Positions 2,523 to 48,945 of a stretch of 64,000 bases of DNA are shown in pieces. How positions within the stretch are numbered: the stretch's first letter is position 1; each line of letters starts with the position of its first letter. Made by a program: the position numbers and the translations under genes. The notes under the pieces are model-generated. The model was given only the letters and a program-made list of their open reading frames with translations. It made no database searches and was not told where the DNA came from. The stretch is from Alphaproteobacteria bacterium (GTDB taxonomy: Bacteria; Pseudomonadota; Alphaproteobacteria; MPNO01): contig OZ219866.1 in the NCBI GenBank assembly GCA_964291675.2, positions 3,149,909 to 3,213,908 of the forward strand, in the 5' to 3' direction.

Positions 2523-3056
2523 ATGTCGCGCGTGGGACAAATGCCGGTCACGCTGCCCGAGGGCGTCGAGGTGGCGATCGCCGGGCGCGAGGTCAGCGCC
2601 AGGGGCAAGCTCGGCGCGCTGTCGATGACGCTGTCGGACCAGGTCGAGCTGACACGGGAAGACGACAGGCTGACGGTGGCGCCGCGCGGCGAGACCAAGC
2701 GCGCCCGTTCGATGTGGGGAACCACGCGGAGCCTGTTGCAGAACATCGTCACCGGGGTCAGCGAAGGCTTCCGGGTCGAGCTCGCGATCAACGGCGTCGG
2801 CTACCGCGCCGCCGTGGACGGCGAGGAGCTGGTCCTCCAGCTCGGCTACAGCCACGAGATCAGGCACCCGATCCCCGAGGGGATCGCGATCGCCTGCGAG
2901 CGGCCGACCCATATCGCGGTCTCCGGCATCGACCGCCAGCAGGTCGGCCAGGTGGCGGCCGAGATCCGCGCCTATCGCAAGCCGGAGCCGTACAAGGGCA
3001 AGGGCATTCGCTATGCGGACGAGATCGTCGTCCGCAAGGAAGGCAAGAAGAAGTAG
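2523..3056 (+). CDS. rplF: 50S ribosomal protein L6
   Basis: 177 aa beginning MSRVGQMPVTLPEGVEV.. and ending ..KGKGIRYADE.. as in L6. Confidence 0.95.
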   Translation: MSRVGQMPVTLPEGVEVAIAGREVSARGKLGALSMTLSDQVELTREDDRLTVAPRGETKRARSMWGTTRSLLQNIVTGVSEGFRVELAINGVGYRAAVDGEELVLQLGYSHEIRHPIPEGIAIACERPTHIAVSGIDRQQVGQVAAEIRAYRKPEPYKGKGIRYADEIVVRKEGKKK

Positions 3057-3422
3057 GTGATGGCAAACCCGTCCGAACTCGCCGTCAGGCGCCGCGCCAG
3101 GGTGCGCCGCCGGCTCAGGCGCCGCAACACCGACCGGCCGAGGCTGTCGGTGTTCCGGTCGAACAAGAACATTTCCGCCCAGGTGATCGACGATCGCGCC
3201 GGGCGCACGCTGGCGTCCGCCTCCAGCCTGGAAAAGGAGCTGCGCTCGGGCCTCAAGTCGGGCGCCGACAAGGAGGCGGCGGCGCGGGTCGGCAAGCTGG
3301 TCGCCGAGCGCGCGCTGGCCAGCGGGGTCACGGAAGTTGTCTTCGACCGCGGCTCCTACCTGTATCATGGCCGGGTCAAGGCCCTGGCCGAAGCGGCCCG
3401 CGAGAGCGGTCTCGCGTTCTGA
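3057..3422 (+). CDS. rplR: 50S ribosomal protein L18
   Basis: 121 aa with an Arg-rich N-terminus and C-terminus ..[27 protein letters not shown]. The real start may be ATG 3060. Confidence 0.94.
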
Positions 3423-3432
3423 GGATTTGCAG

Positions 3433-4023
3433 ATGGCAAGAGGTCCACGATCCGAGCGCGGCGGCCGCCGGTCCGACGATTCCGAGCAGAGCGAGCTCGT
3501 CGACAAGCTGGTCAGCATCAACCGCGTCGCCAAGGTGGTGAAGGGCGGGCGGCGGTTCGGCTTCGCCGCGCTGGTGGTGGTCGGCGACGCCAAGGGGCGC
3601 GTCGGCTACGGCAGCGGCAAGGCGCGCGAGGTGCCCGAAGCGATCCGCAAGGCGACCGAGCAGGCCAAGCGCAAGCTGATCCGCGTGCCGCTGCGCGAGG
3701 GGCGCACGCTGCACCACGACATCGTCGGGCATTTCGGCGCCGGGCGGGTGGTGCTGCGCGCCGCGCCGCCGGGCACGGGGATCATCGCCGGCGGGCCGAT
3801 GCGCGCGGTGTTCGAGACCCTCGGCGTGCATGACGTGGTCGCCAAGTCGATCGGCACCGCCAACCCTTACAACATGGTCAAGGCGACCTTCGACGGGCTG
3901 TCGCGGCTGAACTCGCCGCGCGCGGTGGCAGCCAGGCGCGGCAAGAAGATCGGCGACATCATCGGCCGCCGCGCGGGCGAGGACGGGCGCGGCCAGGCGG
4001 CGGGAGCGGAGGCCAATGGCTAA
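3433..4023 (+). CDS. rpsE: 30S ribosomal protein S5
   Basis: ATG 3433 gives 196 aa with ..[27 protein letters not shown].. The ORF-track start at 3337 would overlap L18. Confidence 0.93.
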
Positions 4024-6844: not shown

Positions 6845-7975
6845 ATGGCGCAGAAGAAGGCCGTCTTCATCGACCGCAGCGGGTACACGACGCCCGAGCT
6901 CGATCTCTGGGAGCCGGTGGTGATCACCAGGGAGGAGATCGACGGCGAGGTCGAGCGGCTGGCCAGCCTGGCGCGGCCGGCCAACGGCCGGCGCCACTCG
7001 ATCGTCGCCCATCCCGACTGGCAGGCGCTCGGCGTCGGTCCCGGCCTGCAGCCCGGGGTGCGCGTCACGCTGGAGGTGCTGAAGCCCGGCGAGCAGTCGG
7101 CGCCGATCCGCCACAACTCGACCCAGGTGAATTTCTGCATCGGCGGCGGCGGGTACTCGATCGTCGACGGCAAGCGCATCCCGTTTGCGCTCTACGACGT
7201 GTGGAACTTCCCGTCGATGGCGACCTACTGGCACGTCAACGATTCCGACGACGTGCAAGTTCGGCTCTCCTACTCCAACGCGCCGCTCTTGGAGAAGATG
7301 AACGTCCACATCGTCGACGAGGAGCCGCCGCCGCCGATCGAGGCGGTCGGCGGCGGCGCGCAAGCCGAGGCCGAGGCGCCGCCCGATGCGCGCGACGTCA
7401 ACCCCTACGGCACCTTCCAGCTCACCGGGGACGGCGCCTGGCTGATGCCCTACGAGACGCTGATCAACCCCGAGGCGCTCGATTCGCCCGCGCTGCACTG
7501 GCCGTGGCAGGACGTGAAGCGCGAGCTCGACAAGCTCCAGGCCCTCGGCAAGGAGTATCGCGGCCGGCGGCTCTACCTGCTGTTCAACCCGATGACCGGG
7601 CGGTTCAACGGCACCACGCCGAGCTTCTTCGCCACCATGACGGTGCGCCCGCCGAAGATCGTCGACCGGCCGCACCGCCATGTCTCGGCGGCGATCAACT
7701 ACTATTTCTCGGGCAGCGGCCGGTCCACCGTCGAGGGCAAGGTCTATGAGTGGAAGGCGGGCGATCTGATGCTGTCGGCGCCGGGCTGGGCGGTGCACAA
7801 CCACGCCTCCTACGACGAGGCGGTCTACGAGCTGACCGTCCAGGACCAGCCGCTCAACATCGTCATGGAATCGCTCCTCTGGCAGGAGGACCTCAAGCAT
7901 CCGTGGTCGGTGCTCGGCGCCAATGTCGGCTTCGAGACCAACAAGGAGCAGGTCAGGGCGGCGCTCGGCGAATAG
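6845..7975 (+). CDS. bicupin protein, gentisate 1,2-dioxygenase-like family
   Basis: 376 aa from ATG 6845, with caggagg upstream. There are two cupin barrels. The C-terminal barrel carries PHRHVSAAINYYFSG...WAVHNH metal-ligand-like residues, while the N-terminal one has only RHNS. Assignment is at family level only. Confidence 0.6.
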   Translation: MAQKKAVFIDRSGYTTPELDLWEPVVITREEIDGEVERLASLARPANGRRHSIVAHPDWQALGVGPGLQPGVRVTLEVLKPGEQSAPIRHNSTQVNFCIGGGGYSIVDGKRIPFALYDVWNFPSMATYWHVNDSDDVQVRLSYSNAPLLEKMNVHIVDEEPPPPIEAVGGGAQAEAEAPPDARDVNPYGTFQLTGDGAWLMPYETLINPEALDSPALHWPWQDVKRELDKLQALGKEYRGRRLYLLFNPMTGRFNGTTPSFFATMTVRPPKIVDRPHRHVSAAINYYFSGSGRSTVEGKVYEWKAGDLMLSAPGWAVHNHASYDEAVYELTVQDQPLNIVMESLLWQEDLKHPWSVLGANVGFETNKEQVRAALGE

Positions 7976-7979
7976 CGCC

Positions 7980-8879
7980 ATGATGGACCTGCCGGAGGAC
8001 TTCCTGCGCGGCTCGATACCGCCGCTGATCACCCCGTTCCGCGACGGCGCCGTCGACTACGCGGCCTATGCCGGGATGGTCGAGTTCCAGATCCGCGAGG
8101 GCTCGCACGGCATCCTGGTCAACGGCACCACGTCGGAGCCCGCGACGCTCACGGTCGCCGAACGCAACCGGGCCGTCGACGTGGCGGTCGAGGCGGCCGC
8201 GGGAAGGGTGCCGGTCGTCGCCGCCACCGGGTCGCAATCCTTCGCCGATGCCGAGGCGCTGACCCTGCATGCCGACAAGGCGGGGGCCGACGCGCTGCTG
8301 ATCGTCACCCCCTATTTCATCCGCCCGCCGCAGCGCGGGCTCGCCGCCTACTACCTGGAGCTCGCCACGCGCACCGAACTGCCCTGGATGATCTACCACA
8401 TCCCCGGCCGGGCGGCGGTGAGCGTGACCCTGGAGACGCTGTGCGAGATCGCCGACAAGGCGCCCAACTTCGTCGGCATGAAGCACGCCGTCGACGATCT
8501 CGGCTTCGTCAGCCGCTGCCTCGCCCGGCTCGGCATGGATTTCCGCATCTTCGTCGGGCTGGAGGACCTCAGCTACCCGATGATGGCGGTCGGCGCCTGC
8601 GGGCTGATGAACGCGGTCGGCAATCTGCGCCCGGCGCGGCTGGCGGCGATGTGCGAGGCGGTCTGGGAGGGCGACCTCAAAAAGGCGCGGGACATCCACT
8701 ACGCGCTGTTCGAGATCAACCAGGCGGTGTTCTACGACACCAACCCGATCCCCATCAAATACATGATGAAGCGGGTCGGGCTGATCCCGGAGAACGCGCA
8801 CCGCCTGCCGATGGTCCCGGCGCTGCCCGAGCTCGAACGACGCCTCGACGGCGTGCTGGAGCGGGCGGGGATGGTGTAG
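7980..8879 (+). CDS. DapA/N-acetylneuraminate-lyase family class I aldolase (dihydrodipicolinate synthase family protein)
   Basis: 299 aa with ..PPLITPF..GILVNGTTSE..ATGS..YHIPGR..FVGMKHA.. (Schiff-base Lys context). ATG 7980 is 5 nt after the bicupin stop. Confidence 0.8.
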   Translation: MMDLPEDFLRGSIPPLITPFRDGAVDYAAYAGMVEFQIREGSHGILVNGTTSEPATLTVAERNRAVDVAVEAAAGRVPVVAATGSQSFADAEALTLHADKAGADALLIVTPYFIRPPQRGLAAYYLELATRTELPWMIYHIPGRAAVSVTLETLCEIADKAPNFVGMKHAVDDLGFVSRCLARLGMDFRIFVGLEDLSYPMMAVGACGLMNAVGNLRPARLAAMCEAVWEGDLKKARDIHYALFEINQAVFYDTNPIPIKYMMKRVGLIPENAHRLPMVPALPELERRLDGVLERAGMV

Positions 8880-8895
8880 CGCTCGCGCTCATCGC

Positions 8896-8947
8896 CGGCC
8901 CTGCGGCTCCATGGCGGCGGCGGATTTCGCCAGACGGACGAGGCCGA
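8896..8947. repeat. direct repeat, left copy (52 bp, 50/52 identical to 10356-10407)
   Basis: The core CGGCCCTGCGGCTCCATGGCGGCGGCGGATTTCGC is exact in both copies. On the minus strand this copy also reads GLVRLAKSAAAMEPQGRR, followed by TGA at 8889-8891. Confidence 0.9.
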
Positions 8948-9122
8948 GCCGCTCCCCGCCCCGAATGCGCCACAGCCTCGTCGCACCTCGCCCCCCGCGC
9001 CCCTCGACCCGCACCGTCTGCCTGACACGGGTTGACGGTTGCCCGCTCCAATTCAAGCCACCCAACCGAAACCTGTCTGTTCGCGAACCGATTTCAACCC
9101 TACGGATACCTCCGGAGCAGGG

Positions 9123-10145
9123 TCAATCCATGGGTCGTTCTACCCTACATTCGATGCCCGATCTCCCGTTGCGTGCCGTCCTGCGATGTCCCAGCAGCAC
9201 GGCCACGACCAGCAACGGCAGGTTGAAGACCGCCAGGTACACGGCGATGTCGGACGGCAACATCTGTCCGCCGTAGTACAGCGATTCGACAACCATGCCA
9301 GTCGTACCGACAAACCGAGGAGGAGCTATGGGCAGGAACAGCTCCATCGCCAGCATCACCAGCGCCGCCGTGCTCAACGCGGACACGACACCGACCGTCC
9401 ACGCGGCGCGTCGATACCCCAGGCGCCAGAGGAGCCGGCAAGGCAGTGCAATCATCAGACCAGCAGGCGAAAACACGAAGAGCGTCACCGCGAACATCGG
9501 CAGCAACCTGACCCACAATTGAACCTCGCCCATCGGCACGACGCCCAGCGGGGCCAGGAGCAACCGGAGCGCTTCTTGGGGAAGCGTGGCGCGCAGGGCC
9601 GGAAGAAGCTGGATCAGCATGCCCCCGCTTGCCTCTGCCGGAAGCCACAGCAATGCAAGGAGCCAGAAGCCGACACTCAAAGACCTCCGGCGAGGCGCTT
9701 CCGCATGGGTCGCTTCGGGACGCGGAAGCATCGCGATCGCGATCCAGACCAGCCCACCGACGATTGCCGGGTAGACGACAATCCAGACCGGCAATGTCAT
9801 CGCGAGGATACTCGGCGCAAACGCCAATGCGCCGATGATCCACTGCAGCGAGCGGATCAACTCGCCGTCCGAGGAAATGATCGCCGCCGTGGCGGCAAAC
9901 AGCACAATACCGGCCGACCAGGCCATGCGACGATATCCCAATCGCCAGAGCCACCTGCACAGCAGTGCGCTCGGCAACCCCATCGGGGCGAGGATCGGGA
10001 TCGCAAGGAGCAACCAAATCAGGGTCTGCGCAGGACCGACAGGGGGAACCACGGCGTCCATCCGGGGGACGAAGGAGACCAGGCGGTCTCCCACTTCGAT
10101 GGCCGGCACCCACATCAGCGCCAGCGCCCAGAAGCTGGCCGTCAT
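9123..10145 (-). CDS. hypothetical polytopic membrane protein with internal tandem duplication
   Basis: The ORF 9123-10280 has an internal ATG at 10145 (MTASFWALALMWVP..) that gives 340 aa. Two homologous halves share FW(A/L)LAL(M/L)W(V/L)PA.. and LPxxLLxRxLWRLGYRR(M/A)AW(S/T).G(I/V)V. I recognise no family. Confidence 0.6.
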   Translation of the reverse strand: MTASFWALALMWVPAIEVGDRLVSFVPRMDAVVPPVGPAQTLIWLLLAIPILAPMGLPSALLCRWLWRLGYRRMAWSAGIVLFAATAAIISSDGELIRSLQWIIGALAFAPSILAMTLPVWIVVYPAIVGGLVWIAIAMLPRPEATHAEAPRRRSLSVGFWLLALLWLPAEASGGMLIQLLPALRATLPQEALRLLLAPLGVVPMGEVQLWVRLLPMFAVTLFVFSPAGLMIALPCRLLWRLGYRRAAWTVGVVSALSTAALVMLAMELFLPIAPPRFVGTTGMVVESLYYGGQMLPSDIAVYLAVFNLPLLVVAVLLGHRRTARNGRSGIECRVERPMD

Positions 10146-10348
10146 GCCGGAAACCCGGCGGTCGGTATGTTGCAGGAATCGGAACCGCACGTGTGCTTCG
10201 AGCCTCAATGTCGATGCCGGCAATCCGGGTGGCAAAGTCTTCTCCCGCTGTTGCGTAGCTGCAACAACCGAAGCCCGCAACCGTTGCGGCAGGAGCGGAT
10301 GACCCCATGGTGGATGGCAGGAGGAACGGTCGCTGGGTGGGAAGGCGG

Positions 10349-12316
10349 TTACCGGCGGCCCTGCGGCTCCATGGCGGCGGCGGATTTCGCGAGCCGGACG
10401 AGGCCGACGAACTCGGCCCGGTAGCCGAACCGGTCCTTGCCCTTGGCCGCTTGAGCGGCGGCGAGGACGTCGTCATAGCCGTAGTCGCCGGTGTAGCGGC
10501 CGCCGCGCAGGATCTGCCCGAACGCGGCGACGGCGGCGGCGAAGCGGAGATCCCGCGGCGCCTCGTCCGCGTTCCCGAACGCATCGGCCGGGGTGACCTG
10601 CCGGGCCATCCTCGCGCTCTTCCCGGCGTCGGGCTTCTTGTAGCGGATGGAGACGGTGGCGAACTCGTTAACCGACCCGCCGCCCGTCCGGGCCTTCTGC
10701 CGGCCGTAGCGCAGCGGCGCGGTCAACTCGCCGCCCGAGCCCGCAAGCGCGACCTCGTAGAGCGCGGTCACCGTGTGGCCGGCGCCGATCTCGCCGGCGT
10801 CCACCTTGTCGTTGCGGAAGTCCTCGCGCGCCAGCATCCGGGTCTCGTAGCCGATCAGCCGGTATTCGGCGATGAGCGCCGGGTTGAACTCGACCTGGAT
10901 CTTGACGTCCCTGGCGATCGGGAAGAGCGTCGATCCCGCCTCCTGAACCAGCACCTTGCGCGCCTCCGACAGGCTGTCGATATAGGCCGCGTTGCCGTTG
11001 CCGCTCTGCGCAAGGCGCTGCATGAGTTCGTCGTTGTAGTTCCCCATGCCGAAGCCGAGGACTGAGAGATAGACGCCGCTGTCCCGCTTGCGCGCGATAT
11101 AGCCTTCCAGCTGCTCCGGATCGGCGATGCCGACATTGAAGTCGCCGTCGGTGGCGAGGATCACGCGGTTGATGCCGCCCTCGACGAAATGCTGCTCGGC
11201 GAGGAGATAGGCCTGGCGGATCCCCTCCGCGCCCGCCGTCGACCCGCCCGCATCGAGGCGGTCCAGCGCGGCGGCGATCTTCGCGGGCTCGGCCGCTTCG
11301 GTCGGGGGGAGCACCGTGCCCGCGGCGCCCGCATAGGTGACGATCGCCACCCTATCGTCGGCCGCCAGCGCGCCCAGCAACAGCTTGAACGAGCTCTTCA
11401 GGAGCGGCAGCTTGTCGGGCGCGTCCATCGAGCCCGAGCTGTCGATCAGGAACACCAGGTTGGCGCGCGGGCGAGACTCGCGCTCGGGAACGTAGCCCTT
11501 GATGCCGATATGCATCAGCCGCGTCGCCTCGTTCCACGGCGTCGGCATGAGCGAGGCGTGGACGGCGAACGGCGTCTCGCGGTCCTCCGGCGGCGCGTAG
11601 CCGTAGGGGAAGTAGTTGACCAGCTCTTCCGTGCGCACCGCGTTCGGCGGCGGCAACACGCCCCGGTTGAGCGAGGCGCGCATGAAGCCGTAGGACGCGG
11701 TGTCGACGTCGATCGAGAAGGTGGAGACCGGGTCCTCGGCGGCCCGCTTCACCGGGTTCGCGTCGAAGGATGAGAAACGGTCGCGGTGAGCCGAGCGGGG
11801 CGGCTCCGAGGGACGGTACATCGACAAGGCCCGTCCGGAGTCCTGCAACAGCAAGTGCTGCAGATCCTTCGACAAGGCCTCACGGGATGCCCCCTCCGTC
11901 TGAATCCGCCGCCAACGCTCCTCCATGGCCTTTCTTCCGGCGGCGGCCTGGCGCGATTCCGGCGGCGCCGGGGCCGGTTCCGATGTGCCGGGGCCCGGTC
12001 GGGCAGCGGCCATTTGCTGCTCCTCCGTGCCGGAACCGGGGAGCCAGAGTGTTCGGTATCCGACGACGCCGGCAACCACGAGACAGGCGGTCAGACCTGC
12101 AAGGGCGAGATGGGGACGGGGCATCGGGATCCTCCGCAGCCAGGACGTACCCTGTCCGGGTACACGCCCTATCTGACGGCTCCCGTGTCGAAATCCTTGG
12201 CGGTGTCGGTCGAAAGCGGCCATCGCCGCCTCCATCGTCCGCTCGCGGTCGCCCGGCGACGGGCGCGGCGGGTTGGCGTGGAGCGCCCTCTGCAACCTGT
12301 CGAAGTCGTCGTTCAC
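10349..12316 (-). CDS. anti-sigma factor fused to a periplasmic von Willebrand A domain (YfbK-like)
   Basis: GTG 12316 overlaps the sigma gene stop (GTGA). A short N-terminal region is followed by one TM (LALAGLTACLVVAGVVGY), the MIDAS motif LIDSSGSM, ..ILATDGDFNVG.., and a long C-terminal domain like YfbK-type vWA proteins. Confidence 0.8.
   Translation of the reverse strand: MNDDFDRLQRALHANPPRPSPGDRERTMEAAMAAFDRHRQGFRHGSRQIGRVPGQGTSWLRRIPMPRPHLALAGLTACLVVAGVVGYRTLWLPGSGTEEQQMAAARPGPGTSEPAPAPPESRQAAAGRKAMEERWRRIQTEGASREALSKDLQHLLLQDSGRALSMYRPSEPPRSAHRDRFSSFDANPVKRAAEDPVSTFSIDVDTASYGFMRASLNRGVLPPPNAVRTEELVNYFPYGYAPPEDRETPFAVHASLMPTPWNEATRLMHIGIKGYVPERESRPRANLVFLIDSSGSMDAPDKLPLLKSSFKLLLGALAADDRVAIVTYAGAAGTVLPPTEAAEPAKIAAALDRLDAGGSTAGAEGIRQAYLLAEQHFVEGGINRVILATDGDFNVGIADPEQLEGYIARKRDSGVYLSVLGFGMGNYNDELMQRLAQSGNGNAAYIDSLSEARKVLVQEAGSTLFPIARDVKIQVEFNPALIAEYRLIGYETRMLAREDFRNDKVDAGEIGAGHTVTALYEVALAGSGGELTAPLRYGRQKARTGGGSVNEFATVSIRYKKPDAGKSARMARQVTPADAFGNADEAPRDLRFAAAVAAFGQILRGGRYTGDYGYDDVLAAAQAAKGKDRFGYRAEFVGLVRLAKSAAAMEPQGRR
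10356..10407. repeat. direct repeat, right copy (inside the 3' end of the vWA gene)
   Basis: See 8896-8947. The two mismatches (10391, 10394) fall on third codon positions (CTC/CTG Leu, CGG/CGT Arg). Confidence 0.9.
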
Positions 12317-12876
12317 GGCGTCACCTCGCTGCCGGCCAGCATCGCGCGCAGCCGCTTGCGCGCCTCGTGCATGCGCCACGACACGGTGGATTCGGAGACG
12401 CCCAGCACCTCGGCGGCTTCCGCATGCCGCAACCCCTCCTCGATCACCAGGGTCACGGTCGTTCGCAAATCGGCGCCGAGCATCTCCAGCACCTGGCGCA
12501 GCCAGACGGCCTCGTCCTCGCGCTCGGCCTGTCCGGCCCGGGTCAGGGTGTCGATCTCGGCGAACGCCTGCTCGTTGCGCCGCCTCGCGCCGTCGCGCCG
12601 CAGGCGGTCGCGCGCGGCGTTGACCACCACCCGGTAGAGCCAGGTGGTGAACCGGCTCTCGCCCCGGTATGAGGCGAGCCGGGCGGCCAGGCCGACGCAC
12701 ACATCCTGCGCCAGGTCGGCCGCATCGTCCGCGTCGCCCAGCACCCGCGCGCCCACCCGGTATATCCGTTCGTAGTGACGCTCGATGAGCGCCGCAAAGG
12801 CGTCGCGGTCACCGGCCGCGGCTCGTCCGGCCAGCGCGCCGTCGGTCTCCCCGTTCATCTGGGCACAAGTGTCCAA
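12313..12876 (-). CDS. RNA polymerase ECF-type sigma factor
   Basis: Region 2 is ..FTTWLYRVVVNAARDRLRR.. and region 4 HTH is ..GLRHAEAAEVLGVSESTVSWRMHEARKRLR.. The start could be ATG 12858 rather than TTG 12876. Confidence 0.88.
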   Translation of the reverse strand: MDTCAQMNGETDGALAGRAAAGDRDAFAALIERHYERIYRVGARVLGDADDAADLAQDVCVGLAARLASYRGESRFTTWLYRVVVNAARDRLRRDGARRRNEQAFAEIDTLTRAGQAEREDEAVWLRQVLEMLGADLRTTVTLVIEEGLRHAEAAEVLGVSESTVSWRMHEARKRLRAMLAGSEVTP

Positions 12877-12922
12877 CGCGGTCCCACCCTATGGAGTTTG
12901 ACGCATCCCGGCGGCGAAATCC

Positions 12923-13786
12923 TTGGCCGGCTTGGCGGCGCGGTGCTACGGTCGCGTCATCCGACGGCGGGACGGGAGACGGCGCGTGCAAGTCACCCTG
13001 CTGGGCACCGGGCTGCCCTTCCCCAATCCGAAGCGGCGCGGCCCGGGCTACGCGGTGCGGGCCGGGTCGAACGGCTTCCTGGTCGATTGCGGCTCCGGCG
13101 TGGTGGTGCGGCTGGTCGAGGCGGGGGTACCGCTCGACAGCATCGAGCACGTCTTCATCACCCACCTGCATTCCGACCACTACATCGATCTCGGGCATTT
13201 CATCATCTGCCGCTGGATCCTGGGCGGCGACGCGCCGTGGCACATCTACGGGCCGCCCGGGCTTCGGCCGATGGTCGACCAGCTGCTCGAGATGCACCGC
13301 CCGGACCTCGAAAGGCGCATGAAGATCCGCACCGCGCGGCGGGAAATGCCCAATATCGTGGTGCACGAGATCGACCAGGGCCTCGCGGCCGAAATCGACG
13401 GGATCGAGGTCACCGCCTTCGATGTCGACCACTTCCCGCTGGAACAGCCCTTCGGCTACCGCTTCGAATCGAAGGACCGGCGGATCGTTCTGTCCGGCGA
13501 CACCTGCCCCTGCGAGAATCTGATCCGGCACGCGCACCGGGCGGATATCCTGATCCACGAATGCATGCAGTACGAGAAGTGGCGGGCGCCCGAGATCGAC
13601 AAGAGCCACACCGCGCACGCCCACACCTCGCCCGAACGGCTCTCGCTGGTCGCCCGGGACGCCGAGGTGAACATGCTGGTCACCACCCACATGATGCCCG
13701 ACGCGGTGCCCCGCGAGCTCAGCGAGATCATCCGCCGCGACTACCGGGGACCGCTCGCCATCGGCGAGGATCTGATGACGCTGTAG
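12923..13786 (+). CDS. MBL-fold metallo-hydrolase
   Basis: The HxHxDH motif ITHLHSDHYIDLGH is present. The N-terminus ..VTLLGTGLPFPN.. suggests the true start may be GTG 12986. Confidence 0.8.
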   Translation: MAGLAARCYGRVIRRRDGRRRVQVTLLGTGLPFPNPKRRGPGYAVRAGSNGFLVDCGSGVVVRLVEAGVPLDSIEHVFITHLHSDHYIDLGHFIICRWILGGDAPWHIYGPPGLRPMVDQLLEMHRPDLERRMKIRTARREMPNIVVHEIDQGLAAEIDGIEVTAFDVDHFPLEQPFGYRFESKDRRIVLSGDTCPCENLIRHAHRADILIHECMQYEKWRAPEIDKSHTAHAHTSPERLSLVARDAEVNMLVTTHMMPDAVPRELSEIIRRDYRGPLAIGEDLMTL

Positions 13787-45580: not shown

Positions 45581-46639
45581 CTACCCGCGCGGGCGCCCGA
45601 GTTCTTCCGCGAGGCGCCTGATCTCGAGCACGCGTTCGCCCGTCGCGGGATGGGTCGACAGCCATGACGGTCCGCCGCCCGCATCGTCGGCGGAAAGCCG
45701 CTCGAAGAACCGCGTCAGCGCCGCCGGATCGTAGCCCGCCCTGGAAGCGATCCCCACGCCGATCCGGTCCGCCTCGCGTTCGTGCTCGCGCGAATGGGCG
45801 AGCGAGAGAAGCAGCCCGCCTTCCAGCAGCATGTCGTCCAGAACCGGGCCCACGTCGCCGACGATCACCGCGACAAGGAGATAGGTGCCGAGGCTGCGAT
45901 AGACGCGGCGTAGCCCGTGGGCCTCGGCGACATGGGCGATCTCGTGCCCCAGCACGCCCGCGATCACGTCGGGTTCGGGGAATGCCCTCACCAGCTCGTC
46001 GGTAACGACGATGGTGCCGCCCGGCAGGGCGAAGGCGTTCGGGCCCACTTTCGGCATGCTGCGGAACACCAGCTTGTAAGCGCCGAAGCGGGGCGCGGGC
46101 GCCACCGCCCCCAGCCGCTCGAACACCCCGCGCGTCCGGTTCCGTTGTTCCTCGTCCAGGCCCGACGGTTCGGCCAGCGTCCGGTCGGCGAAGGCGAGGT
46201 GGCCGTCGTCGACGGCGCGGGTGAGTGCGTCGGGGGTGAACGCCAGCGCGACGGCGACCAACGCGCCGAGCCCCCAGCGCCAGACCGCGAAGCCCGCCAC
46301 GAAGGCGAGCGCCACCACGAGGACCAGCCGCGGACGCCACGCCTCCCAGCGATGCAGGCGGTCGGTGCGGTCGGTTCCCAGCAACGCATCGACCGCGTCG
46401 TGATGGTGGCTGGTGAAGCGCCAGCCGCCGGGAAAATGGGCGGTGGCGGGCAGACTGCCCAGCCGGCGCTCGCGGCGGATCGCCGAAGGCGCTGCGCTCG
46501 CCAGCACCGTGCCGTCGTCGCGGTCGACCAGCTCGACGGCGCCGCCATCGGCCGCGGCGCGCAGACGGGCCGCGATCCGCCGCGACGATCCGGCGGCATA
46601 GGCCTCGCCCGTGGGCGCCTCAGGCGGCCGCCCCGACAT
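45581..46639 (-). CDS. M48-family zinc metallopeptidase with a soluble N-terminal domain and 2 TM
   Basis: It has HExxH in ..GVLGHEIAHVAEAHG.. and downstream ..EREADRIG.. The start overlaps the upstream DUF898 gene by 20 nt. Confidence 0.85.
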   Translation of the reverse strand: MSGRPPEAPTGEAYAAGSSRRIAARLRAAADGGAVELVDRDDGTVLASAAPSAIRRERRLGSLPATAHFPGGWRFTSHHHDAVDALLGTDRTDRLHRWEAWRPRLVLVVALAFVAGFAVWRWGLGALVAVALAFTPDALTRAVDDGHLAFADRTLAEPSGLDEEQRNRTRGVFERLGAVAPAPRFGAYKLVFRSMPKVGPNAFALPGGTIVVTDELVRAFPEPDVIAGVLGHEIAHVAEAHGLRRVYRSLGTYLLVAVIVGDVGPVLDDMLLEGGLLLSLAHSREHEREADRIGVGIASRAGYDPAALTRFFERLSADDAGGGPSWLSTHPATGERVLEIRRLAEELGRPRG

Positions 46640-47705
46640 CCGCGCCGCCTAAATCCATATAGGCATCGCCCACGGCCGATTGCCGGCATTCCGCCTCGCT
46701 GGTGAAGCGGTCGAGCGAACCCGCAGGCCTGATCCAGGTGTTGGCGCACAGATACCGCGCCACGCGGATGCGCGCCCAGGGCAGCAGCAACCCCAGCGAA
46801 GCGACGACGGCGACCGCATTGCTGATCGCGATCCACACCAGCCGCGTTGCCGAAATGGTCGATGCGAACCGGTGCCCGCCTTCGAGCGCGGTGCCGGCAT
46901 AGACGGCATTGCGCACGAACGCGCCATAGATCGTCTTCAGTGGCAGGACCGCGACCAGGATCAGGCCAATGAACGCGGCCATGCCGATATCGTGCTCGTA
47001 GCCGCTGCTGCGGATTGCGCGTTCGAAATCGTCCGCAAGCCCGCTTGCCGCCAGGACGCAGACAAACAGCACGAAGACCGCGACGAACCATGCCGCCGAC
47101 CATGCCGCCGTCAGGAGGAGGGCGCGATAGAACGGCCCGATCCCGCCGTTGAAGGAAAACCGCCGATCCCCCAGCGAATGCCCTCCGATCGTATACCGTT
47201 TCATCTCCCGCGCGGCGAAAGGGAATGCCAGAAAGAGGGTAGAGGCCGCGAGGAGAGGGAAGATAGCGAAAACGCTGATGGCTCGCTGTCCCGTCCCGTC
47301 GAAGCGGAATCGGACATCCGACCAGCTCGTTACCGACGCGTTGAACCTCAGCGCCTGATAAATGAACACGGGGGTGACGCCCAACAAGCCTATGGAACTG
47401 ATGGCGAAGTCAGGGTTGAGCGACGACCAAACGCCCATCGCCCCGAACAAGCCGACCACGATGGCGCGGCCGACGAGGACCTGACGGCCCGTGGCATGGT
47501 AGCCGAAGGGCCGGCCGCCGATGGTGGTGTTGCCGAGGAAGTACTTCTTGTTCCTGACCTTCGCCCAGGCCGAGTAGATGCCGAGCGTGGCGATCGACAG
47601 CAGCACGTTGACGATCCAGATGCCGAAATATTCGCGGGCATCGCCGGTAAACCGGACGGGGACGGTTTCGGTCGCACCATGCATCTCGCTCTGCCTTTGC
47701 TGCAT
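46620..47705 (-). CDS. DUF898 (YjgN-like) family membrane protein, paralog 1
   Basis: 361 aa with ..FTGDAREYFGIWIVNVLLSIATLGIYSAWAKVRNKKYFLGNT.. Confidence 0.75.
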   Translation of the reverse strand: MQQRQSEMHGATETVPVRFTGDAREYFGIWIVNVLLSIATLGIYSAWAKVRNKKYFLGNTTIGGRPFGYHATGRQVLVGRAIVVGLFGAMGVWSSLNPDFAISSIGLLGVTPVFIYQALRFNASVTSWSDVRFRFDGTGQRAISVFAIFPLLAASTLFLAFPFAAREMKRYTIGGHSLGDRRFSFNGGIGPFYRALLLTAAWSAAWFVAVFVLFVCVLAASGLADDFERAIRSSGYEHDIGMAAFIGLILVAVLPLKTIYGAFVRNAVYAGTALEGGHRFASTISATRLVWIAISNAVAVVASLGLLLPWARIRVARYLCANTWIRPAGSLDRFTSEAECRQSAVGDAYMDLGGADVGAAA

Positions 47706-47798
47706 GCGGTGCGTCCCGGATGCGCCAAGGCGCGCGGGCTGTCCATGCGGCGTTTCGCCGCGCCACGCCGGCAGCAGGGAAACCGGGGCGCCCCTGTC

Positions 47799-48863
47799 TC
47801 AGACGGCGGCGCCGACATCGATGCCCTCGATGTCCAGGAAAGCATCGCCGAACGCCGACTGCCGGCGCTCGGCCTCGCCGACGAAGTCGTCGAGCGAACC
47901 GGCGGGCCTTATGAAGGTATGGGCGCACAAATAGTGCGCCACGCGAATCCGTGCCCAAGGGAGCAGCATTCCCATCGAGAAGACGACGGCGAGTGCGTTG
48001 CTGATGGCGATCCAGACCAGCCTGGGCGGCGCGATCGTCGATTCGAAGCGGTGGCCGCCTTCGAGGGCGGTTCCGGCGTAAATCGCGTTGCGCGTGAAGG
48101 CGCCGTATATCGTGGCCGCGGGAAACAGCGCCACGAACCAGATCGCCGCGGCGACGAACAGCATGAGGATGGTGACGCCGTCGGACGGATCGCCGGTCTG
48201 GAGGTCGAGCATGACCCGCTCCGCCATCCCGCTGTTCAGGATCACCCCGAGGGTCAACGCGATGCCGACGACGGCCCATATGGCGGTGCAGAGGAACGCG
48301 ACGTAGAACGGTCCGATCCCGCTGTCGAAGGCGAAGCGGTGCCCGCCCAGCCGATGTCGACCGATTCTGTATCGCGCGGCGGCCCTGGTCACGTAGGGAA
48401 GTGCCAGATAGAGGCTGAAGAGCGCAAGAAACGGGTAGAGCAGGAACACGAGGAAAGCGGGCCAGTAGCTCCCTTCGAACCGGAAGCGCAGATTGGACCA
48501 GCTGGTCATTGCCGCGTTGAAGCGCAGCCCCCGATTGATCAGCCAGGGCAGGATCGCCGCGTACAACAGGACCAGAACAGGCACCGCGACCGGAAGGAAG
48601 GTCGAGGCGACGGAATACAGCGCGATCGCCGCGACCACGATGGCGCGGCCGATGAGTATCTGGAGGCCCGCGGCGTGATACGCGAACGGCCGGCCGTCGA
48701 TGCTCGTGTTGCCCAGGAAGTACTGCCTGTTTCGCACCTTCGCCCAGGCCGAGTAGACGCCGAGCGTGACGATCGACAGCAGCAGATTGATCAGCCAGAT
48801 GCCGAAATATTCCCGGGCGTTGCCGGAGAATTGCACCGGGATCGCCGAAGTTGCAAACTGCAC
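47799..48863 (-). CDS. DUF898 (YjgN-like) family membrane protein, paralog 2
   Basis: 354 aa with ..FSGNAREYFGIWLINLLLSIVTLGVYSAWAKVRNRQYFLGNT.. It is collinear with paralog 1. Confidence 0.75.
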   Translation of the reverse strand: MQFATSAIPVQFSGNAREYFGIWLINLLLSIVTLGVYSAWAKVRNRQYFLGNTSIDGRPFAYHAAGLQILIGRAIVVAAIALYSVASTFLPVAVPVLVLLYAAILPWLINRGLRFNAAMTSWSNLRFRFEGSYWPAFLVFLLYPFLALFSLYLALPYVTRAAARYRIGRHRLGGHRFAFDSGIGPFYVAFLCTAIWAVVGIALTLGVILNSGMAERVMLDLQTGDPSDGVTILMLFVAAAIWFVALFPAATIYGAFTRNAIYAGTALEGGHRFESTIAPPRLVWIAISNALAVVFSMGMLLPWARIRVAHYLCAHTFIRPAGSLDDFVGEAERRQSAFGDAFLDIEGIDVGAAV

Positions 48864-48945
48864 GCGCTATTTCTTTCCATGCGGGTGTCCCGCCTACATG
48901 GGGATGGCCGCGAGGCGTGTCAATTGGCCGCCGCGCCGGGCGGGA

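Follow-up and report, generated by a model that had tools for sequence, protein, structure and literature searches.

Probable capture of a foreign membrane-protein gene by a single homologous crossover at the end of an anti-sigma/vWA gene in an alphaproteobacterium

The genome of an Alphaproteobacteria bacterium (GenBank assembly GCA_964291675.2) contains, on contig OZ219866.1, a 64,000-nucleotide (nt) stretch (positions 3,149,909 to 3,213,908; hereafter the window, numbered from its first letter) in which an islet of foreign DNA (8948-10348) lies between two copies of the 3' end of a gene for an anti-sigma protein with a von Willebrand factor A (vWA) domain. The single gene of this islet encodes a membrane protein and is referred to below as the cargo. 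We consider it probable, with moderate confidence, that the arrangement arose by ordinary homologous recombination, that is, by a Campbell-type crossover that inserted the foreign DNA and displaced the native gene end. The initial annotation of this DNA had seen in the same structure the footprint of a site-specific insertion, brought about either by a decayed or trans-mobilised element or by some non-canonical mechanism. The evidence assembled here points instead to the homologous capture of a foreign gene and not to a new or site-specific insertion system.

The direct repeat that frames the islet is 63 nt long and 90 % identical between its two copies (8885-8947 and 10345-10407), which are spaced by 1460 nt from start to start and are in register with the reading frame. 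Its core (8896-8930 and 10356-10390) is exact over 35 nt, and 50 of 52 positions are equal between 8896-8947 and 10356-10407. When up to three mismatches were allowed, a pattern built on 34 nt of the core was found exactly twice in the window, at these two sites only, whereas 100 shuffles gave no occurrence. Read on the minus strand, each copy gives GLVRLAKSAAAMEPQGRR and then a stop codon: the right copy (10349-10407, 18 codons and TAA at 10349-10351; the repeat reaches 10345) is the vWA end now in use, while the left copy (8889-8947, 18 codons and TGA at 8889-8891; the repeat itself reaches 8885) is a displaced orphan whose stop codon sits 9 nt from that of a convergent gene of the dihydrodipicolinate synthase (DHDPS) family. 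All of this confirms the repeat as it had first been described. Over the 57 duplicated coding nt, the copies differ at five places, all of them silent: the third-position synonymous changes CGG/CGT, CTC/CTG, CGC/CGG and CGG/CGA, and the stop codons TAA/TGA. The first two had been recognised before, whereas the two in the last two codons (CGC CGG vs CGG CGA) had been missed. For five random substitutions in the duplicated end, the probability that all are silent is 0.0014. Such constraint would not act on a dead copy that had arisen in place. Each copy has therefore diverged in a lineage of its own, where it formed the end of a functional gene, and the two represent alleles and not a target-site duplication. 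An in-situ target-site duplication is also ruled out by the flank of the right copy, which is of a foreign-locus type (see below). Likewise, a decayed remnant of a vWA paralog was considered and rejected, as 8948-9133 has no similarity to vWA.

The origin of the two copies becomes apparent when both are compared with related loci (labelled L001 to L121 in the following) in coding orientation. The right copy has a distal arm (CGG CTC) that is, together with the adjoining 480 nt of the gene body, L085-like, and the synonymous divergence (dS) of 10349-10828 from L085 is 0.085, the same as on the DHDPS side. Its end, CGC CGG TAA, and the flank that follows, CCGCCTTCCCACCCAG, are of the type found at L083 (CGC CGG CAA CCGCCATCC) and L003 (CGC CGA TAA CGGCCATTCCAACCAG). 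When anchored at the stop codon, this flank is identical to that of L003 at 12 of 16 positions, while the other 84 loci mostly reach 3-7 and the next best reaches 9. The initial proposal that the incoming DNA supplied a replacement end is thus borne out by both the last codons and the post-stop flank of the right copy. In the left copy, the pattern is inverted: the last codons are CGG CGA as in L085 and L090, and the 9-nt spacer behind them is L085-like, whereas the distal arm (CGT CTG GCG) shows three clustered differences from every close relative and occurs in more distant alleles, for example, in L012 and L016. One side is hence native-foreign and the other foreign-native, as a single reciprocal crossover within the shared core would produce. 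Replacement of the whole gene by an allele that carried the cargo along is ruled out by the 480 nt of vWA beside the islet, whose dS to L085 is that of the DHDPS side.

Empty sites in relatives corroborate that the 3' end of the vWA gene received an insertion. Syntenic loci came from species-representative genomes scanned for the vWA protein and from a look-up of the members of its 90 % cluster, which together gave five syntenic relatives that we call independent (L085 and L086, two records of one population, one of them labelled as a Defluviicoccus sp. metagenome-assembled genome; L120; L121; and L004). They share the gene order ribosomal proteins, SecY, Adk, cupin, DHDPS, convergent vWA, sigma factor, metallo-beta-lactamase (MBL)-fold hydrolase, amidohydrolase and AMP-ligase. 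In these relatives, the vWA and DHDPS genes are convergent, with a single copy of the gene end and no cargo, and the gap between the two genes measures 30-31 nt (L085, L120, and L121) or 84 nt (L004). In the genes that flank the islet, the window differs from L085 by a dS of 0.06-0.12 and from L004, the outgroup, by 0.11-0.20. Since the relatives are single-copy and cargo-free and L004 is the outgroup, one gain in the lineage of the window is the simplest account, and the islet is, on this comparative evidence, a lineage-specific insertion. Furthermore, none of 85 other vWA loci has a homolog of the cargo or another copy of the gene end next to the 3' end of vWA.

A separate observation concerns L089, a close relative (vWA 89 % identical at the nucleotide level; same MBL-sigma-vWA side), in which different low-GC foreign DNA (2790-3486) follows directly after the vWA stop codon and replaces the DHDPS gene; it holds a partial open reading frame (ORF) with weak matches to tetratricopeptide repeats, on a short contig of 2x coverage. 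The vWA/DHDPS junction looks like an insertion hot spot.

In composition, the islet stands apart from its surroundings. Its GC content is 0.644, as compared to a mean of 0.690 +/- 0.021 for 1.4-kb stretches of the window, and is the lowest of all (lowest 0.3 %), in agreement with the lower GC content that had been noticed by eye. The third-position GC content (GC3) of the cargo gene (0.76-0.78) is likewise the lowest of about 50 window genes, the median of which is near 0.92. The foreign DNA extends from 8948 to about 10356 and comprises, on the minus strand, a 3' spacer of 175 nt downstream of the cargo (8948-9122; no blastn match among the 121 fetched loci), the cargo gene (9123-10145), its 143-nt leader (10146-10288), a spacer of 60 nt from the leader to the vWA stop codon (10289-10348), of which the 16-26 nt closest to the stop codon show homology to the L003/L083 vWA flank, and the foreign gene end. 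Only one ORF of the islet has coding-like composition, namely the intact cargo gene. As had been stated before, one membrane-protein gene is all that the islet contains, with no integrase, transposase or inverted termini. A search of the islet and of about 10 kb to its left and right revealed no recombinase gene or remnant of one, be it here or in the syntenic relatives, and the genes over this distance have housekeeping or metabolic functions. The ends of the islet are not paired by any inverted repeat, predictions of tRNA genes, promoters, and terminators gave none for the islet, and Rfam yielded no match in it. Inspection by eye, with no motif scan, revealed no attC core sites (RYYYAAC ... 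GTTRRRY) in 8948-9122 or 10146-10348, but only short hairpins in the leader.

The cargo itself is an all-helical protein of 340 amino acids (aa; GC3 of the gene 0.78) that consists of two tandem units of about 150-170 aa, a duplication that is echoed at the nucleotide level (9529-9565 and 9979-10015). Distant relatives from metagenomes of the Joint Genome Institute (JGI; L091-L119) are single-unit proteins to which both halves of the cargo align. Neither Pfam nor NCBIfam offers a family for the cargo protein, and its AlphaFold model (predicted local distance difference test, pLDDT, of 45) is unusable. The family is small, with 44 homologs that stem nearly all from metagenome assemblies, many of them looking sponge-associated, and the 90 % cluster of the cargo holds this sequence alone. 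The leader travels with the gene and has the same 5' boundary in four unrelated settings: it is 89.5 % identical to that of L083, about 80 % to that of L001 and 77 % to that of L087, and the alignments of window, L001, L083, and L087 all stop at window positions 10288-10291. Short hairpins occur at its start (CCGCAAC-G-GTTGCGG and GTTGC-AGCTAC-GCAAC, minus strand); a structured RNA was considered and rejected, with no Rfam match and no covariation support.

Seven other cargo loci, from seven genomes, represent seven different settings, and none of them (including L001, L002, L083, L084, L087, and L088) shows flanking repeats. The cargo homolog is found inside an island with recombinase and transposase genes in L001, in ordinary chromosome followed by a DHDPS fragment in L002, between hydantoinase and peptidase genes in L087, and beside a transposase gene in L088. 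The nearest relative, that of L083 (92.7 % nucleotide identity; 9535-10600), is truncated at a position that matches window 9490 and directly precedes, at a distance of about 70 nt, a sigma-vWA operon with 87 % identity to that of the window, so that the order is cargo-sigma-vWA in L083 vs sigma-vWA-cargo in the window; no vWA remnant was found upstream of the L083 cargo. In L084, the cargo is convergent with another sigma-vWA operon. A sigma-vWA operon therefore adjoins the cargo in three of eight cargo loci (window counted), far above chance, which makes a donor of the kind proposed below plausible, and the adjacency may hint at a functional link. As a further observation, a truncated N-terminal fragment of a DHDPS-family gene follows the cargo homolog in the same direction in two unrelated genomes (L001:11274-11720 and L002:11266-11805). 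It derives from a paralog only about 34 % identical to the DHDPS of the window; with the full-length gene of the window included, DHDPS adjacency amounts to three of eight cargo loci.

The course of events that we favour would begin with the entry, by a presumptive route, of a foreign DNA molecule into an ancestor of the window's genome. This DNA would have carried the cargo gene with its 143-nt leader and, just upstream, the last ~60 nt of a foreign vWA gene together with its downstream flank. Such a vWA end would have belonged to another sigma-vWA locus; since the stop-proximal part of the 60-nt spacer is a vWA flank of the L003/L083 type, the donor presumably had its cargo about 60 nt behind an operon of that type, and the cargo homologs of L083 and L084, which adjoin sigma-vWA operons, lend plausibility to donors of this kind. 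A single reciprocal crossover between this DNA and the resident vWA gene, within the ~35 nt of identity close to the stop codon, would then have inserted 1460 bp, provided that the incoming molecule was circular or had been circularised. The vWA frame would thereafter end in imported codons for the same 18 residues, and the native end would have been pushed 1.46 kb downstream, to remain beside the DHDPS gene as an orphan copy that is no longer in use. The crossover would most likely have depended on RecA. Recombination by RecA requires a minimum of roughly 25 nt, and the exact core of 35 nt is therefore long enough for homologous recombination. In E. coli, duplication of the homologous segment, and not its deletion, distinguishes a single crossover by a circle from homology-facilitated illegitimate recombination, and most events in the respective experiments on illegitimate recombination were single crossovers recognised by such duplications (PMC3240628).

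Several points weigh against this course of events. Both copies have GCG where close relatives have GCC, which calls for heteroduplex repair or a native polymorphism. The chimera depends on few sites (about 9 informative ones and the flank). No donor was found in which a cargo lies 60 nt behind vWA and is followed by the 186 nt, and the exact 30-mer of the leader is absent from the JGI metagenomes, in which a protein-based scan returned distant single-unit relatives only, with no sigma, vWA or DHDPS gene beside any of them. This course of events also presupposes a circular intermediate of just this composition and, as the left spacer measures 9 nt as opposed to 31 nt in relatives, a second event in the form of a 22-nt deletion. 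In addition, the assembled contig is the sole source for the structure.

The same final structure and the same pattern of silent differences could also result if homologous recombination in vWA were one-ended and the far end of the donor DNA were joined without homology at a point 59 nt ahead of the native stop codon, either as homology-facilitated illegitimate recombination or through repair of a break in vWA by copying of a donor template. For such an event, a linear donor fragment with the cargo downstream of vWA would suffice, and the sharp end of homology at 8947/8948 is what an illegitimate joint would look like; moreover, the same mechanism has been put forward to explain displaced effector ends at Vibrio type VI secretion system (T6SS) and Rhs loci (PMC5361080). 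We nevertheless hold it to be unlikely. It predicts a wholly native left copy, a wholly donor-derived right copy and a gene body of donor type, and the few informative sites favour neither the native left copy nor the donor-type body. The body to the right of the repeat is native-like, which would demand a donor that resembled L085 throughout the body and L003 at the very end only, and the three clustered differences in the left distal arm are unexpected for native DNA at about 4-6 % divergence. Besides, the classical outcome is a deletion, whereas the last 59 nt of the recipient were kept and duplicated here, and the duplications seen in E. coli are single crossovers of circles (PMC3240628).

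The view of the initial annotation can be put more concretely as a non-autonomous, cis-mobilisable-like cassette with an attachment (att) site that mimics the vWA 3' end and is served by a tyrosine or serine recombinase encoded elsewhere. The flanking direct repeats with their exact core, the restored gene end, the discrete 5' boundary of the cargo unit in four settings and the frequent vicinity of cargo homologs to transposase or recombinase genes (L001, L084, L088) would all be in keeping with this. We judge it distinctly improbable nonetheless, considering that recombinases are missing from the islet and its surroundings, that the insertion recurs at none of the 85 other vWA loci, that the seven other cargo loci have no flanking repeats, and that the supposed att copy runs into a genuine vWA downstream flank, as a piece of a real locus would. 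A trans-acting site-specific recombinase is not needed where the chimera fits one homologous crossover, nor is a decayed or trans-mobilised element or a non-canonical mechanism, as the imported end is a genuine vWA end with its own flank and not an att mimic. A related conjecture, improbable as we see it, is that the cargo and its 143-nt leader form a small non-autonomous cassette that circulates among sponge-symbiont-like bacteria, with captured sigma/anti-sigma-vWA ends as portable homology or att sites; if true, the cassette would land behind operons without breaking them and would come under the control of an extracytoplasmic function (ECF) sigma factor. Precise deletion between 59-nt direct repeats is easy, and relatives that had lost an ancestral two-copy islet in this way would be left with a single copy. 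This, however, would take at least two independent losses (in the L004 lineage and in that of L085, L120, and L121) and still require an earlier insertion event, while the GC3 of the cargo is foreign and the single copies of the relatives are devoid of foreign-type sites, all of which renders an ancestral islet very hard to credit. Finally, the window stems from a metagenome-derived contig of 3.66 Mb, and the two copies look like two alleles, as they would if the assembly had joined two strain haplotypes; the chance of this is minimal in our opinion, given that the 8947/8948 joint lies outside the shared sequence, where an overlap-based false join is not expected, that the cargo gene is intact, and that both junctions are clean and in register.

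The single homologous crossover that we favour has close parallels in known systems. As in Campbell-type integration, a direct repeat of just the shared segment frames the insert, and the gene stays intact as the homology includes its end, with no need for a recombinase or inverted repeats; the four arms would also fit copies that combine resident and incoming DNA reciprocally, on few informative sites. What differs is the very short homology of 59-63 nt with a 35-nt exact core, as compared to duplications of 109-950 bp in E. coli (PMC3240628), and the fact that this would be a natural event in an uncultured symbiont-like alphaproteobacterium and not one of a plasmid construct, with circle and vehicle presumed. 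The displacement model for orphan 3' ends of Rhs, contact-dependent inhibition (CDI), and T6SS loci (PMC5361080) similarly has an incoming module recombine in a conserved part of a resident gene and supply a new 3' end and a downstream gene, while the old end is shifted downstream as a fragment. However, no polymorphic toxin is involved here, as the anti-sigma protein lacks a variable toxin tip, old and new ends encode identical 18 residues and hence cause no functional change at the tip, and a single orphan is present here instead of an array, with a membrane protein instead of an immunity gene as payload. Integrative and cis-mobilisable elements that insert at the 3' end of a gene and bring a replacement end share the direct repeats at both junctions and the restored reading frame and, in the case of cis-mobilisable elements, the absence of an integrase inside the element; they differ in that the islet measures only 1.46 kb, offers no evidence of a recombinase or of recurrence at this target, and has as its 'att' copy a real gene end with its natural flank. 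Transposons, insertion sequences, and miniature inverted-repeat transposable elements would be expected to leave short target-site duplications of 2-15 bp, unlike the 59-63 nt with silent differences only and no terminal inverted repeats seen here, and the islet differs from an integron gene cassette in that no canonical attC was seen by eye and there is no structure support for one.

The host locus itself consists of ordinary genes. On the left, the native flank is formed by the DHDPS/DapA-family gene (7923-8879, plus strand; Pfam DHDPS, 1e-69), which is convergent with the vWA operon and 96-97 % identical at the nucleotide level to its counterparts in L085, L120, L121, and L004. It scores 250.1 bits with the NCBIfam dapA model TIGR00674, above the curated cut-off of 206.15, and, with a higher score that is below the cut-off of that model (396.7), 298.7 bits with HpaI-NOT-DapA (TIGR02313). 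The native spacer between its stop codon and that of the left copy (8880-8888, 9 nt) equals the 31-nt spacer of L085 minus a 22-nt internal deletion. To the right of the islet, the gene for the anti-sigma/vWA/YfbK_C protein (10349-12316, minus strand; 655 aa; Pfam vWF_A, VWA, YfbK_C), the body of which is native and L085-like, follows with a 4-nt overlap the ECF sigma factor gene that heads the operon (12313-12876, minus strand; Pfam Sigma70_r2/r4_2/ECF, NCBIfam sigma70-ECF). The break point of the insertion lies seven residues inside the YfbK_C domain match, and an insertion without a replacement end would therefore have truncated the domain; as it is, the protein keeps its exact C-terminus and the gene is intact. 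The cargo gene is co-directional with the sigma/anti-sigma operon and starts 203 nt behind it, with no terminator predicted in between, and may be co-transcribed by read-through from it.

Three further features of the window deserve mention. All close relatives have kept a motif AAGGATTT-N12/13-GCGTCAAAC(T) in front of the ECF sigma gene (window 12877-12940, minus strand; L085, L004, L003), which probably represents an autoregulated ECF promoter; a promoter of this type shared by cargo and sigma gene was considered and rejected, as AAGGATTT...GCGTCAAAC is not present upstream of the cargo. Within the operon (10829-12876), the dS of mid-vWA and sigma to the syntenic relatives is 0.22-0.49 and patchy, that is, 2-3x that of the flanking genes (0.06-0.20), which suggests mosaic allelic recombination within the sigma/anti-sigma operon, separate from the islet. 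The second lowest-GC stretch of the window (46600-48900, about 0.645), with two minus-strand genes of GC3 0.82-0.86, may be another acquired segment.

For annotation, these results imply that 8889-8947 is to be regarded as a dead orphan gene end and the membrane-protein gene as a strain-specific acquisition. They also provide criteria by which such an event may be told from a target-site duplication or an att site, namely differences that are silent only, reciprocally chimeric arms, and an 'att' copy that continues into a genuine flank. If our favoured account is correct, the islet adds one more case to a known kind of event, opens no new mechanism, and illustrates in a natural setting how a few dozen bases of a shared gene end may suffice to capture a foreign gene, with the resident gene undamaged and without any mobile-element machinery.

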